DNA from: a virus | Taxonomy: Duplodnaviria; Heunggongvirae; Uroviricota; Caudoviricetes | Reading direction: 5' to 3' (one strand) | DNA: 52,243 nt | IMG/VR virus record: IMGVR_UViG_2563366937_000007 | In this document: positions 10,290-40,158 of the stretch, piece by piece | Position numbering within the stretch: position 1 is the first letter of the stretch | Layout: each line of letters starts with the position of its first letter | Notes under the pieces: generated by a model | Databases searched by the model: none | Told to the model about the DNA's origin: nothing | What the model saw: the letters and a program-made list of their open reading frames with translations, nothing else | Program-made: the position numbers and the translations under genes

Positions 10290-13200
10290 TCAACGGATAC
10301 TGATACCGGAAGCAGCTTTTTTGGTCACAATCACCGTACAGTCTGTGATGTTACCTGCGCCCTGATTGCCTTTCTGGAAAATCTTAAACTCCAGAGTGAC
10401 GCTACCACCACCACTCGGCATATCAATAACCGCACTGTAACTACCGGGAATGGCCCCTTTAGTTTCTCTGGATGCGATTAATACGCCGTTTTTGCGAACT
10501 TCAAAACCATAACCCGTGTATCGCGTACCTCCCGGGTTATTACCGCTCCCCGGATCGTCATACGCCATACCGTTAAAAATAATGGGCGGAATAATGATTT
10601 GGCGGTCAAAGTTATGATCATCGTAAATGGTGACTGTAACCGTCCCGCCTGGTGTTTCCGTGTTACCCCACGTACCAGCCTTTTTCGGAAATGATTTGGA
10701 TACAGTTTTAACGAAGTCACCTCTGACCTGGTTCGCCTCCAGCATGCCCTTAATCGTACAGTTTTCATTTACCGTGACGTTGTTGAGCGTCCCGGAGTTC
10801 GCATTCACGTTACCGCTGATATCGGCATTTTTCGCCGTCAACCGCCCGTCCGATGTCAGGGAAAATACCGGCGGATTGCCGCCGCTGGTAATGGTTGGCG
10901 CCGTCAGATACTTCAGGAACACTTCGTTCATGAATATCTGGTTGCCCTGCGCCACAAACATCGGCGTTTCATTCCCGTTTGCCGGGTCAATAAACGCGAT
11001 ACGGTTAGCGGCAACCAGGAACTGGCTCAGTTTGCCTTCCTCCGTATCCTCCATGCTGAGGCCAAGCCCCGCGACATAATGCCTGCCGTCTTCGGTCTGC
11101 TCAATTTTGACGCCCCACATGGCATTCCATTTATCGTTGGCGTCCTTCCACTCTTTCGAAAACTCCTCCAGTTTGCTGGCGTTATCCTCCGTCAGCTCGA
11201 CTTTTTCCAGCAGCTCCTTGCCGAGATGGGATTCGGTTATCTGGCCTTTGAAAAAATCCAGGTAACCTTCCGCATCATCGCTCGCCCGACCGACAGCCTC
11301 CACGAATGCCGATTTGCCAACAGTGTTCACACTGCGAACGTAAAAATAATAATCATGGCCCGGCTTAATATTGATACTGGCGGCTATCCAGTACAGCGCC
11401 GTGCCAAGATAGCGGGCTGTGGTTTCAACCTGCCTGATATCGGTAATCCGCTTTTCCGAGAACCAGAACTCAAACTGTACCGTCGGATCATAAACCGCAA
11501 GATGCGGCGTGGCGGTTATCTGAAAATAGCCCGGCGTCAGCTCAATCCGCGACGGTGCTGCCGGTGCGGCAATCCGGAACGATACCGACGCCGGATCGCC
11601 CTGCTGTCCCCACGCATTTACCGCCCGGACTGTCAGCCTGTAGTTCCCCAGCGCCAGTTGCGTGAAGCGGTATGTGGTTTCCGTCGTCCGGGCCGTGCTG
11701 ACCAGCCGCTCACTGCCGTCATCCGCTGCCACGGTCAGGCGAAGCATAAAGCTCACCCCCTTCACCACCTTCGGCGTGTCCCAGCGCGCCAGCACCTGGT
11801 ATTCCCCGCTGTCTGCGGTGACTTCTGCGGTCAGGTGCTGCACTGCTGGCGGCGTGACACCATTCACCGTGCCGCTCTGGTCGCCGTCAAAGTGCGCCCC
11901 GTTATCCACGATGGCTTCTTTCTCCGGTACATGCTGCACGGCAGTGATGGCATACGTACCGTCATCGTTCTCACGGATACTCACACAGCGGAACAGGCGC
12001 TGGCGCAGCGTCGGCAGCTTCAGCCCCCACACGCTGTACTCGGCAACGCCGTCAGGAACCCGGCTCACTTTCACCTTCACGCCGTCGGTGACGGACTGGA
12101 CCTCCACGCTGACCGGATTCCCCTGTCCGTCAACCAGGCTTATCAGCGTGGTGCCGGAGGATGGCAGCGTGATTTCACGGTCGAGCGTCAGTGTCCGCGT
12201 CTGGCTGTTCACCGCCAGCACGCGCCCGCCGATGCTGATCCCCGCATAGTCATCATCACAGATTTCAATGACATCACCCGGTACATGGCGAAGCCCTTCG
12301 GCACCCACGCTGAAGTCCACGGTCTGCGTTTCCAGCAGTTCCGTTTTAATCAGCCACAGCCCGGCGCGGTGTGCCTGCCCCCGGCTGGTACAGCCAAAGG
12401 CATCCATCTTCGTGACGTTACGACCGTAACGGGCAATGGCCTGCGAGTCCTCCACAAGCTCTGTCGCCGTCTCCCAGCCGTTATCCGGGTCAATCCAGTT
12501 CACCTCAACGGCATTATGGCGGTCCTTCAGGGCGCTGAAGCTGTAGCGGAACGGCGCGCCATCATCCGGCATCACCACATTACTGCGGTTATAGGTCCAC
12601 ACCTTATCCGACGGTCGGTCCTGCACGAACGTCAGCGTCTGCCCGTTCCATACCGGCATACAGCGCATCGCCGAGCAGAAATCACTGAGAACATCCCACG
12701 CCTTGCGCTGTGTGGTCAGGTAAGCGTTACAGGTGATGCGCGGCTCCGTGCCACCAAAGCCATCCGGCACTGACTGATCGCAATACTGGCCGATGACATA
12801 CAACGCCCATTTATCCACATCCGCCGCACCAAGACGTTTCCCCATGCCGTAGCGCGGGTGGGTCAGCATATCCCACAGACACCAGGCCATATTGTCGCTG
12901 TATGCTGGCTTAAACGTTCCGTCCCAGATACCGCTGTATTGCCGCGTCTGCGGGTTATAGTTCGACGGCACCTGCAGAATGCGCCCGCGAAGATGATAAT
13001 TACGGCTCACCTGCTGGCTGCCGAACTGCTCCGAATCCACCTGCACGCCGACCAGTGCCGTGTTCGGGTAGCACTGTTTCACATCGATGATTTCGGTGTA
13101 TGACGACCAGAGCGTTTTGTTCTGCAGCTGGTCTGTGGTGCTGTCCGGCGTCATCCTGCGCATCCGGATATTGAACGGGCGCGGCGGCAGGTTATCCACC

Positions 13201-13703
13201 ACCACCGAGGCCAGATACTGCGAGGTGGTTTTGCCCTTAATGGTGATGTCTTTTTCCGTCACCCAGCCACCGTTACGCTGTATCTGAACCAGCAGGCGGA
13301 CTTCCGACGGATTCCGGTCCCCCTTTGAAGTGGTTTCCACCAGTGCCTGCACACCGAAGGTAAAGCGCAGACGGTCGATATTTGCAGACGTGATAGTCCG
13401 GGTGATCGGCGTGTCGTATTTCACTTCCGTACCCAGTACCGTCTCGGAACCTGATGATTCAAATCCCCCCGGCGGTGTCTGTTCCTGCTCACCTGCCCGG
13501 AACACCACCGTGACACCGGAGATATTGGTATTTCCCTCACTGTCCAGCACTGGCGTGCTGTTCAGCAGCACGCTTTTTAATCCATCCACCGGACCTTCAA
13601 CCGGCCCTTCGCTGATGGCATCGATCACACTCAGCAACTGCGTTGATTTGAGATTATCCTTCGCTTCGCGCGGGGTATGCCCCTTACTGCTGCCTTTACC
13701 CAT
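10290..13703 (-). CDS. host specificity protein J (central tail fibre)
   Basis: 1137 aa, lambda gpJ size; position after the I/K/L/M genes. Confidence 0.9.
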
Positions 13704-36304: not shown

Positions 36305-36379
<75 letters not shown>

Positions 36380-36382
36380 ATA

Positions 36383-36458
<76 letters not shown>

Positions 36459-37350: not shown

Positions 37351-37641
37351 TCACAAATATCCCTCCTTTCTCCAGATTTCTTGTGTGCGAAAAACACCTT
37401 CTGCATGCATCAGGCGTAATTCTTCTTTGGTGTAATCGCTGGTTTTTACCCGCCCGTCGATTAGATCGTGGCATGAGCTACAGGCAATCGCCGCCTGCAT
37501 ATCGTGTGGTTTTGTCGCTGTTCCGCACGTTCCCGCCAGTCGGTAATGCGCCAGCACAGACGTTTCCGGATCGTGATTGCAGTAGCCAGGAATTCTGACG
37601 GTGCACATCTGCCCCCGCGCCGCTTTACGTAAATCCACCAT
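37351..37641 (-). CDS. YbcO-like nin-region protein (DUF1364-type)
   Basis: 96 aa; Cys/His cluster (C13, C21, H23, C54, C57, H58); resembles DLP12 YbcO as I remember it. Confidence 0.55.
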   Translation of the reverse strand: MVDLRKAARGQMCTVRIPGYCNHDPETSVLAHYRLAGTCGTATKPHDMQAAIACSSCHDLIDGRVKTSDYTKEELRLMHAEGVFRTQEIWRKEGYL

Positions 37642-38240
37642 TACGCAAACTCCAGCAGCTGCGCGGCCACATTTTCGACTTGTTCCGGAGAGGAAAATTT
37701 ACGGAACAGAATCCAGTTCCACAGCACATTCAGAACAGATTTATAAACCTGCTGAAACTCGGTTTCGTCCATATTCGCAAAAGCGATGGATTTCGCCCGA
37801 CGCCCATGGCTACCGTCCGGATAAAAATGTTCGGTGTAAAATCCAGCCTGAATGGTTACCCACTCGCGAAAAGCCTCAAACGACTTTAGCAATGCCGTAT
37901 CCCGGGTTCTGCGTGTCGCAACTGTATTCAGATATTGCTCTGCGGCATCACTCAGGGCTGGCGTGTGTTCCCGACCAACTGATTCGCACAGGTAATCAAC
38001 GAAACCAGACAGCAGTTCTCGTTCGCGAGGCGTGATCGCCCCACCGACCGGAGTCCAGTAATCGAATCCCAGTTGCAGGAGTTTGAAAAAACGCTTGTGG
38101 AATACGTAGTTACGCACACGCTTAAAGTCTGCGTGTATCCACTCACCTATTTTGATTTGATGCAGAAAATCGCAACTCTCCGGCGTCGCCGGGAGAAGTA
38201 AACCAGAAGAGGTTTGTTTGACCAGTTGTATATGCGCCAT
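37641..38240 (-). CDS. nin-region hypothetical protein, 199 aa (DUF1367-like)
   Basis: ORF-track ORF directly upstream of the YbcO-like gene; family assignment is from memory. Confidence 0.4.
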   Translation of the reverse strand: MAHIQLVKQTSSGLLLPATPESCDFLHQIKIGEWIHADFKRVRNYVFHKRFFKLLQLGFDYWTPVGGAITPRERELLSGFVDYLCESVGREHTPALSDAAEQYLNTVATRRTRDTALLKSFEAFREWVTIQAGFYTEHFYPDGSHGRRAKSIAFANMDETEFQQVYKSVLNVLWNWILFRKFSSPEQVENVAAQLLEFA

Positions 38241-38513
38241 TTCTCAATCTCTCGATGGCGCAGTGCAACAGATGCCAGTTGTTCAGGCTGACGTATAAAG
38301 TATAAATAAACTGGTTCCAGTGTAAAGCCCCCACATTGATGGAATAAAAACCAAACAACAGATTGCTGGGATAAAAACAACGCTTATTATTAAAAGCGGT
38401 TAAACAAATTAAATTTTAATGTTATGCAAATCTGCCAGATCACCATAATATCTCATTTGAAAACCGCTGAAATAACAACCCTATCAGGATTAATCATATT
38501 AAGGTGAGTAAAT

Positions 38514-38600
38514 ATGGAAAACAACAAATCTGCACATTACGTTCCTTTTTTATCTGTAATACTTTTTGTTTTATGCTGTGCGTGGGCATTATTTTTATAA
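38514..38600 (+). CDS. candidate small hydrophobic peptide, 28 aa
   Basis: AAGGTGAG sits 6 nt before the ATG; MENNKSAHYVPFLSVILFVLCCAWALFL; below the ORF-track size cut-off. Confidence 0.3.
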   Translation: MENNKSAHYVPFLSVILFVLCCAWALFL

Positions 38601-38706
38601 AAATATTCACAGATAAAATATACCCGCCAAAGCAGGTTAAGTGCGGGTGCGTTGAGGATGCCTGACACATCAGAGGTGGCGAGGGATTTATCCCCCGCCA
38701 GGTCTC

Positions 38707-38862
38707 TTACTCCTCAGGTTCGTAAGCTGTGAAGACAGCGACCTCCGTCTGGCCGGTTCGGATTCGTACCTCACAGAGGTCTTTCCTCGTTACCAGTGCC
38801 GTCACTATGACGGTTAAACAGATGACGATCAGGGCGATTAACATCGCCTTTTGCTGCTTCAT
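38707..38862 (-). CDS. hok: Hok/Gef-family type I toxin (HokD/RelF-like)
   Basis: 51 aa MKQQKAMLIALIVICLTVIVTALVTRKDLCEVRIRTGQTEVAVFTAYEPEE; AAGGAG sits 9 nt upstream; a short upstream frame ends on the hok ATG; missed by the ORF track. Confidence 0.75.
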   Translation of the reverse strand: MKQQKAMLIALIVICLTVIVTALVTRKDLCEVRIRTGQTEVAVFTAYEPEE

Positions 38863-39384
38863 AGCCTGCTTCTCCTTGACCTTTCGGTCCGTAAGAGGCT
38901 AATCTCTATGTGTCGCATAGATATGGCCTCAGATTAATGTTAAACGTCTTGCAGGACGCGTAATGTTAACTGGGGCTTTTCTCTATCTACCTTTGGTGTT
39001 CATGCCCGAGGCAGATAGCCTCAAGCACCCACAGCAATTCTAACTATCCAATACATCACTGCCAACACTTTAAACTCTTACCCTTTAAAACAAGAACAAA
39101 ATTCAACCAATCAGCATTGGGCGTATACTCATATCCTAGAGAAAACAACTCTTTCTGTACTATTTATATCCATATGATTTATAAGCATTTGCCACTTGCC
39201 ATAGCCGCACAATGACAGTTTGCCATTTGATGTCAATAGATAAAAATGATCGTTTTCAATGAGTTACATACTTGCAAGGCGTTGCACATCAGGCCCGATT
39301 ACGTCAGTATCAAAAGATTACAGATGGTGCATTACTGCCACCTCGCCTTAATGTTCCAGAACTCTCCAACTTGAGGAATTTTCA

Positions 39385-40158
39385 ATGACATCCTTTCAAT
39401 TATCTTTGATTTCTCGTGAAATTGACGGCGAAATAATACATTTACGTGCCAAAGATGGTTACATAAACGCCACATCAATGTGTAGAACTGCGGGCAAACT
39501 GCTCTCTGATTACACTAGACTCAAAACTACTCAAGAGTTTTTTGACGAATTATCACGCGATATGGGAATTCCCATATCGGAGTTAATTCAATCATTTAAA
39601 GGTGGAAGACCTGAAAACCAAGGGACATGGGTGCATCCTGACATCGCTATTAATCTAGCGCAGTGGCTATCGCCCAAATTTGCAGTCCAGGTTTCAAGAT
39701 GGGTTCGTGAATGGATGTCAGGGGAAAGAACTACAGCAGAAATGCCTGTACATTTAAAACGGTACATGGTTAATCGTAGTAGAATTCCTCACACGCACTT
39801 TTCTATTCTTAATGAACTGACATTCAACTTGGTTGCACCTCTTGAACAAGCAGGGTACACACTCCCAGAAAAAATGGTTCCTGACATTTCACAAGGAAGA
39901 GTATTTTCACAATGGTTAAGAGATAATAGAAACATAGAACCCAAAACATTCCCTACCTATGACCATGAATATCCCGATGGTCGCGTATACCCTGCAAGGC
40001 TGTACCCAAATGAATATTTAGCAGATTTCAAAGAACATTTTAACAATATTTGGTTGCCGCAATATGCCCCGAAATACTTCGCTGACCGGGACAAAAAGGC
40101 TCTCGCCTTGATTGAAAAAATTATGCTACCTAACCTCGATGGCAATGAACAGTTCTAA
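39385..40158 (+). CDS. KilA-N domain protein (possible antirepressor-like)
   Basis: 257 aa; N-terminal KilA-N-like segment; on the opposite strand to the surrounding early operon; AT-rich upstream region. Confidence 0.6.
   Translation: MTSFQLSLISREIDGEIIHLRAKDGYINATSMCRTAGKLLSDYTRLKTTQEFFDELSRDMGIPISELIQSFKGGRPENQGTWVHPDIAINLAQWLSPKFAVQVSRWVREWMSGERTTAEMPVHLKRYMVNRSRIPHTHFSILNELTFNLVAPLEQAGYTLPEKMVPDISQGRVFSQWLRDNRNIEPKTFPTYDHEYPDGRVYPARLYPNEYLADFKEHFNNIWLPQYAPKYFADRDKKALALIEKIMLPNLDGNEQF

Follow-up and report, generated by a model that had tools for sequence, protein, structure and literature searches.

Sequence elements and predicted RNA folds point to an intact HokD-type hok/mok/sok cassette in a Rac-type prophage of E. 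coli

The stretch of DNA analysed here (hereafter the window) comprises 52,243 nucleotides of a tailed-phage record in IMG/VR (IMGVR_UViG_2563366937_000007). Comparison with the annotated E. coli strains A17 and 1428 showed that it is a Rac-type lambdoid prophage adjoining ttcA. On its minus strand lies a 51-codon hok gene, which falls under the usual ORF listing threshold of 60 aa (the default of the ORF tool used). An earlier note on this DNA, made from the letters alone, had drawn attention to the locus and placed it at 38707-38990; this span covers the hok ORF, stops 40 nt short of the 5' end of the leader and includes neither the promoter nor any of the 3' UTR. Rather than an isolated ORF, we find a hok/mok/sok functional unit that extends over about 38614 to 39065. 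Its elements and the two genes flanking it are the following (mRNA positions count from 39030):

38707 to 38862, minus strand: hok coding sequence, 51 aa, ATG start and TAA stop, product identical to HokD
38872 to 38877, minus strand: hok Shine-Dalgarno sequence AAGGAG (mRNA nt 154-159), 9 nt before the hok ATG, read from the sequence
38859 to 38918, minus strand: mok, 19 codons plus TGA by translation, its stop overlapping the hok start as ATGA
38927 to 38930, minus strand: mok Shine-Dalgarno sequence GAGG (mRNA nt 101-104), 8 nt before the mok AUG, read from the sequence
39037 to 39065, minus strand: predicted sigma-70 promoter of hok, 10/12 in a consensus scan; -35 TTGGCA (39065 to 39060), 17-nt spacer, -10 TAGAAT (39042 to 39037)
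38860 to 39030, minus strand: hok leader, 168 nt, ending on the hok AUG; Rfam RF01794 'sok', 101.5 bits, E = 5.9e-22, model positions 1-157 of 157
38614 to 39030, minus strand: predicted full-length hok mRNA, about 410-415 nt, with the 5' end placed from the promoter and the Rfam model and the 3' end from the terminator
39019 to 39030, minus strand: tac element GGGUGCUUGAGG (mRNA nt 1-12), paired with fbi in the full-length minimum free energy (MFE) fold
38972 to 38978, minus strand: ucb, an anti-Shine-Dalgarno element, AAGCCCC (mRNA nt 53-59), from fold prediction
38895 to 38899, minus strand: dcb, GCCUC (mRNA nt 132-136), paired with the mok Shine-Dalgarno region (nt 101-105) in a predicted RNA ending at nt 373
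38645 to 38657, minus strand: fbi element CCUCAACGCACCC (mRNA nt 374-386), 12 pairs with tac in the MFE fold and one bulged C; also kept in K-12 hokD
38612 to 38637, minus strand: intrinsic terminator of hok from a terminator scan, a stem (38637 to 38622) followed by AUAUUUUAUC
38876 to 38905, plus strand: putative Sok promoter, read from the sequence and collinear with the sokW promoter of phage 933W; -35 TTGACC (38876 to 38881), 18-nt spacer, -10 TAATCT (38900 to 38905)
38912 to 38980, plus strand: predicted Sok antisense RNA, about 69 nt (5' end within 2 nt either way), with coordinates transferred by alignment from the annotated sokW of 933W
39385 to 40158, plus strand: KilA-N gene, divergent from hok
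37641 to 38240, minus strand: DUF1367 gene, the next gene after hok

The peptide encoded by hok, MKQQKAMLIALIVICLTVIVTALVTRKDLCEVRIRTGQTEVAVFTAYEPEE, is identical at 51/51 positions to E. coli K-12 HokD/RelF (taken from NC_000913.3; tblastn, E = 4e-30), and its exact sequence is that of UniProt entry HOKD_ECOLI, which was present on at least 1000 contigs in the protein collection. It matches Pfam HOK_GEF (PF01848) at 82.9 bits (cut-off 22 bits; E = 1.2e-23) over profile positions 1-42 of 42, as well as PHROG 251 ('MokW-like host killing') at 114.7 bits. The NCBIfam Hok models were reached only below their cut-offs (48.5 vs 73), and the name HokD therefore rests on sequence identity and not on an HMM. 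Members of the family are peptides of about 50 aa with an N-terminal transmembrane helix and a conserved periplasmic Cys, and the match along the whole Pfam profile places the window peptide among them. That the frame is a chance ORF is ruled out by the identity to HokD together with the Pfam and Rfam scores. The match to HokD/RelF, which the earlier note had proposed, is thus exact, and the strong ribosome-binding site that it described is indeed found in front of the gene.

The Tyr47 codon of hok (38722 to 38725, minus strand) is UAC followed by G, the TACG motif edited by TadA. In K-12, hokD mRNA is reported to be A-to-I edited at Tyr47, which replaces Tyr by Cys opposite the hard-coded Cys30 (PMC5630033; preprint 10.1101/2025.08.07.668861). 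The sequence of this editing site is the same in the K-12 hokD mRNA and in the window hok.

The mok frame opens with the ATG at 38918 to 38916, encodes the 19-codon peptide MRHIEISLLRTERSRRSRL, and closes with the TGA at 38861 to 38859. The window therefore carries, at the level of sequence, what is expected of the family, a mok frame with a Shine-Dalgarno sequence of its own running into the hok start, and the mok-like frame ending on the hok ATG had been correctly read in the earlier note. Among 78 loci with an identical HokD, mok is in frame with hok in 66, predicting a 70-aa N-terminally extended Hok of the kind annotated for mokW and mokC; in the remaining 12, the window included, it is a 19-codon frame that is out of frame with hok and ends in ATGA. 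The mok frame, as read from these sequences, is evidently allele-dependent, and the occurrence of the short-mok allele, with its 19 codons and ATGA overlap, in a minority of the loci may not be textbook. In plasmid R1, mok is out of frame with hok. Such a frame is also implied by a study of R1 in which stops within the first 19 mok codons abolished Hok (PMC9841398), and in an IncFII plasmid with an R1-type hok we found mok in frame with hok.

The transcript that would carry these frames has well-marked ends. The -10 box of the hok promoter is where homology to other hok cassettes begins, and its last base lies 7 nt upstream of the G at 39030, with which the Rfam leader model starts. The Rfam family in question (gathering score 59), despite its name 'sok', in fact models the hok-sense leader, and a permissive Rfam scan of 38200 to 39400 added nothing credible. 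Folding of the RNA from 39030 to 38616 (about 415 nt) gave an MFE of -173.7 kcal/mol, with a centroid equal to the MFE structure and z = -9.45 versus 100 shuffles. The long-range pairing of a 5' tac with a 3' fbi element, which closes the mRNA in this family, is predicted in both the MFE and the centroid, with a summed tac-fbi pair probability of 11.9 out of 12. In the same full-length fold, nt 55-57 and 59-61 of the ucb region (GCC.C at nt 55-59) are predicted to sequester the mok Shine-Dalgarno sequence, for which the unpaired probability is close to 0 at 3 of the 4 bases, and CUCUU (nt 134-138), which overlaps dcb, would occlude the hok Shine-Dalgarno sequence, whose nt 157-159 have an unpaired probability below 10% in the ensemble.

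Truncation of the RNA from its 3' end changed the predicted fold in the manner expected of the family. In thermodynamic folds of nt 1-355 or 1-362, tac (nt 3-13) pairs with nt 19-29 in a metastable 5' hairpin, while nt 1-373 are predicted to fold with tac paired to ucb (nt 1-3 and 5-8 with 53-59) and the mok Shine-Dalgarno sequence paired to dcb (101-105 with 132-136). The metastable hairpin, the tac/ucb stem and the mok Shine-Dalgarno/dcb stem have all been described for plasmid R1 (PMC9841398). Fold prediction of the leader and 3' UTR, which the earlier note had proposed as a check, thus favoured a hok-type RNA, and the full tac/fbi/ucb/dcb switch anatomy goes beyond what that note had described.

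An antisense Sok-like RNA across the leader had likewise been expected, and a candidate gene for it is present on the plus strand. The predicted Sok, which starts 7 nt after its -10 box and is collinear with sokW and sokC as annotated, has its complement in nt 51-119 of the hok mRNA, a segment that includes ucb, the target stem-loop, the mok Shine-Dalgarno sequence and the mok AUG. In its predicted fold (-26.3 kcal/mol, z = -4.06) a single-stranded 5' tail of 13 nt is followed by one long hairpin and a U-run, so that both sequence and modelling are consistent with the family's cis antisense RNA of about 60-70 nt, expressed from its own promoter over the mok initiation region. A consensus promoter scan returned no plus-strand site at the expected Sok position, because the -10 hexamer TAATCT agrees with the consensus in just three of its six positions (T1, A2 and T6). 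We therefore base the promoter assignment on the hexamers as read and on collinearity with sokW and sokC; the hexamers read for sokW are no better than those of the window. Franch et al. are said to have described, in 1999, a U-turn (YUNR) loop in the Sok target hairpin. The sokW RNA itself has been detected experimentally (PMC8621323).

Around the cassette, the gene order is that of a Rac-type prophage: intR, xisR, ralR, recT, recE, racC, kilR, sieB, the repressor region, ydaT/U/V, DUF1627, DUF977, KilA-N, hok and DUF1367, followed by DUF1364/YbcO, DUF1133, tRNA-Thr and tRNA-Gly, the lysis genes, trkG and the terminase. Upstream of the hok coding and leader unit there are 354 nt of non-coding DNA and then the divergent KilA-N gene. 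The position of hok between the replication and KilA-N genes on one side and the Q-like DUF1367, DUF1364 and DUF1133 genes on the other assigns it to the delayed-early (nin-like) region, and its orientation is that of the replication and Q-like genes. A tblastn search of the whole window with K-12 RelE gave no match, and with K-12 RelB only chance matches (E >= 0.27). A relBEF-type arrangement, in which relB and relE would lie directly upstream on the same strand, was thereby rejected: no RelE match was found, and the leader and KilA-N occupy the upstream DNA. The earlier note's description of a stand-alone hok locus in the prophage early region, lacking relBE upstream, is therefore fair.

Three further features of the window lie near the cassette or elsewhere in the prophage. 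Between hok and DUF1367, at 38299 to 38326 and 38381 to 38398 (both minus strand), there are a promoter-like site (TTTACA, 16 nt, TATACT; 10/12) and a second terminator-like hairpin, both of them consensus matches only. Two tandem tRNA genes, tRNA-Thr(UGU) and tRNA-Gly(UCC), are found at 36305 to 36458 (minus strand), downstream of the DUF1133 Q-like gene. At 50509 to 50687 (minus strand) the window carries RalA (Rfam RF02694, 220.4 bits), the sRNA antitoxin to the endonuclease toxin RalR, whose gene is annotated in the equivalent prophage; the presence of RalA means that the same Rac-type prophage carries a second type I toxin-antitoxin pair.

The cassette is widespread. From the -10 box to the terminator (39042 to 38622) it was matched in 4723 of 5426 complete E. 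coli genomes, at up to 9 places per genome (median 2), with the matched gene labelled by PGAP as hokD or 'Hok/Gef family protein'. The cassette was likewise matched in 102 phage records, among them 933W, whose annotation lists hokW, mokW and sokW, and Rac-SA53, whose annotation lists mok and hok, and in P1-like and other plasmids. The full leader is present in 77 of 80 IMG/VR loci that encode the identical Hok peptide. Many Rac-type prophages that are otherwise almost identical carry a hok shortened from its 3' end to 41 codons, beside an inserted DUF1971 gene, as exemplified by positions 13054 to 13603 of the locus in E. coli strain 1428; this form is a disrupted variant of the cassette, because the fbi box and the terminator are lost.

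We examined the conservation of the cassette in 64 distinct full-length relatives. In the structure derived from the window, 96% of cells are paired, a figure inflated by the use of the window's own fold as the structure under test. All 64 relatives keep the tac-fbi helix paired, with tac invariant and the boxes invariant save for three G-C to G-U changes. Since tac and fbi do not vary, this helix offers no covariation within the clade of 64 close relatives; elsewhere in the structure, eight pairs have changed on both sides among these relatives, and the terminator stem (helix 16) shows compensatory changes. We therefore took the R1-type hok of an IncFII plasmid as a diverged comparison: there tac GGCGCUU pairs with fbi AAGCGCC in the RNA's own MFE fold, and the window's GGGUGC with GCACCC is a compensatory difference. 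Column identity across the 64 relatives is at least 0.99 for tac, ucb (0.994), both Shine-Dalgarno sequences (0.997 for that of mok) and fbi, while neighbouring segments vary.

The most variable segment of all lies around the mok AUG. In the 64 distinct cassettes, all with an identical Hok, nt 106-127 of the hok mRNA (38904 to 38925, minus strand) occur in 16 variants with a mean column identity of 0.815. This is the segment targeted by the 5' tail of Sok, and its variability may reflect a diversification of Sok specificity among co-resident copies of the cassette, which reach up to 9 places per genome. That the target of the Sok 5' tail is the one hypervariable segment of the cassette may, again, not be textbook.

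Beyond the hok terminator, we observed an unannotated 28-aa ORF on the plus strand (38514 to 38600), encoding MENNKSAHYVPFLSVILFVLCCAWALFL, with a hydrophobic C-terminal half and a Shine-Dalgarno sequence TAAGGTG. It converges on hok, leaving 22 nt between its stop and the hok terminator. It lies in a 400-bp spacer that is present in 762 of 5426 E. coli genomes, and among the 12 best matches listed no feature is annotated under it. Both its length and its stop are kept in a 76%-identical copy that has indels in the flanks. The ORF matched no Pfam, NCBIfam or PHROG family and was absent from the protein collection, and scans of its surroundings returned no consensus promoter and no plus-strand terminator. 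It may encode a small membrane protein.

A reading that would join the short-mok allele and the hypervariable segment is that Hok is made from this allele only by termination and reinitiation, and that co-resident prophage copies of hok/sok diversify towards orthogonal Sok specificities with alternative coupling designs. Separately, a transcript of the 28-aa ORF, which has no terminator of its own, would be antisense to the hok 3' UTR and fbi. We regard these ideas as unlikely, and offer them as speculation.

Taken together, the region is very probably an intact HokD-type hok/mok/sok type I toxin-antitoxin cassette in the delayed-early region of an E. coli Rac-type lambdoid prophage. Sequence elements and predicted pairings argue for this reading; 3' processing, turnover of Sok, cleavage by RNase III, coupling of mok to hok and killing at the membrane would be expected by analogy with the R1 paradigm. 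In R1, the toxicity of Hok, the instability of Sok relative to hok mRNA, cleavage of the duplex by RNase III and 3' processing have been shown (PMC9841398), as they have in part for hokW-sokW (PMC8621323).

If the paradigm holds here, the sigma-70 promoter would yield an mRNA of about 410 nt starting from about 39030. In its closed form tac would pair with fbi, ucb would hold the mok Shine-Dalgarno sequence and the upstream CUCUU that of hok. Slow trimming from the 3' end would then remove fbi and allow tac to pair with ucb, a step that is taken from R1 and that folding of the truncated RNA reproduces, and the trimmed RNA would be both translatable and open to Sok. For as long as Sok is made, its free 5' tail and its hairpin, complementary to the mok initiation region, would block translation of mok and trigger cleavage of the duplex. 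Once Sok is gone, the 19-codon mok would be translated, opening the hairpin that hides the hok Shine-Dalgarno sequence, with ribosomes terminating on the ATGA overlap. Hok would then be translated, insert into the inner membrane and depolarise the cell.

The role of the cassette is most likely that of hokW-sokW, to judge by analogy: Sok would be lost on prophage induction and Hok would aid lysis and phage release. The hokW-sokW pair was shown by experiment to be a working type I toxin-antitoxin system, in which sokW is lost under mitomycin C, HokW reaches the inner membrane in a manner that depends on RecA, and phage release falls about 2-fold when the locus is absent (PMC8621323). Retention of the prophage by post-segregational killing and exclusion of other phages are possible alternative roles.

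It is conceivable, albeit unlikely, that the cassette is intact in sequence and physiologically silent, a selfish or decaying passenger that is transcribed and plays no part in killing, prophage stabilisation or lysis, as has been reported for several chromosomal hok loci. Related prophages do tolerate its disruption, both in the form of the 41-codon hok beside DUF1971 (strain 1428 and many others) and in K-12, where the leader has been replaced by relE. In the account of Pedersen and Gerdes 1999 given in passages of a preprint (10.1101/2025.08.07.668861) and of PMC5630033, hokA, hokB and hokC did not mediate post-segregational killing, and it is such chromosomal loci that keep a silent passenger within consideration. 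The pattern of conservation speaks against it, however: the regulatory boxes are held almost constant in the 64 relatives while the flanks drift and the stems show compensatory changes, which argues for ongoing selection on the RNA switch. Moreover, the close relative hokW-sokW has a measurable phenotype (PMC8621323).

Far less probable still is the idea that Hok is made mainly as the tail of the prophage's rightward early transcript, by minus-strand read-through across the KilA-N region, with Sok playing no real part; this would resemble K-12 hokD, the third gene of relBEF. The orientation of hok, shared with the replication and Q-like genes, would allow such a transcript, and K-12 hokD, which has no leader of its own, does depend on the relBE promoter. 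The window hok, however, is served by a 10/12 promoter of its own, exactly 7 nt ahead of the tac box, and a complete Sok gene is present beside it. In addition, every predicted fold hides the hok Shine-Dalgarno sequence for as long as mok is not translated, and a read-through transcript would still carry the Sok target.

In kind and in detail this cassette is already known; it is an ordinary copy of one that is routinely annotated (as hokD by PGAP in equivalent prophages), and the enrichment of Hok in prophages has been documented (preprint 10.1101/2025.08.07.668861). The finding matters little beyond annotation, where the label hokD should be given to the gene and entries made for mok, sok and the hok leader RNA. 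Its modest value is that it exemplifies cleanly the complete hokD cassette in its ancestral form, lost in K-12 when relE replaced the leader, and that it is a second type I toxin-antitoxin pair in a Rac-type prophage alongside ralR/RalA. [quoted passage not shown]

Among named systems, the hokD gene of K-12 (relF, b1562) has not only the same 51/51 peptide but also a near-identical Shine-Dalgarno sequence, coding sequence, 3' UTR, fbi and terminator. Its homology to the window starts only at the hok Shine-Dalgarno sequence, the promoter, tac, ucb, mok and sok all being replaced by relE. K-12 hokD is the last gene after relB-relE in prophage Qin, whereas the window has a complete leader, no relBE and a Rac-type context. 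Since relE stands in place of the leader in K-12, the hokD locus is intact in the window rather than there.

The hokW/mokW/sokW locus of Stx2 phage 933W and Sakai prophage Sp5 is 92% identical to the window in DNA over about 408 nt, from the -10 box to fbi. The three genes are annotated in the 933W record AF125520, a 1999 deposit. HokW and the window Hok are identical at 47/51 positions, with four C-terminal changes (T45V, A46D, P49S and E51K); Sok lies at the same place in both loci, and the tac-fbi fold is the same. The two differ in mok, which in 933W shares the frame of hokW and has been annotated as an extended protein of 70 aa but in the window is out of frame, with 19 codons and an ATGA overlap. 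They also differ in the spacer of the Sok promoter (18 nt in the window vs 17 in 933W) and in location, the 933W locus being near the genome end and the window hok between KilA-N and DUF1367.

With the hok/mok/sok (parB) locus of R1 and IncFII plasmids, the window shares its overall architecture, the tac-fbi pairing, the ucb and dcb boxes, an antisense Sok that overlies the mok start and an mRNA length of about 400 nt. The window and R1-type RNAs both place the hok AUG at nt 169, and their mok AUGs differ by a single nucleotide (nt 113 and 112, respectively). The R1-type Hok is only 42% identical to that of the window, with the TRK-LCE motif kept, and beyond the leader the DNA is too diverged for blastn. 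R1 and IncFII are conjugative plasmids, on which the role of hok is post-segregational killing. Two further relatives are Escherichia phage Rac-SA53 (KU052037) and 'phage Rac' (MN652886), both of Rac type with mok and hok annotated: their cassettes are 92-93% identical to that of the window, with allelic differences in the mok-start segment.
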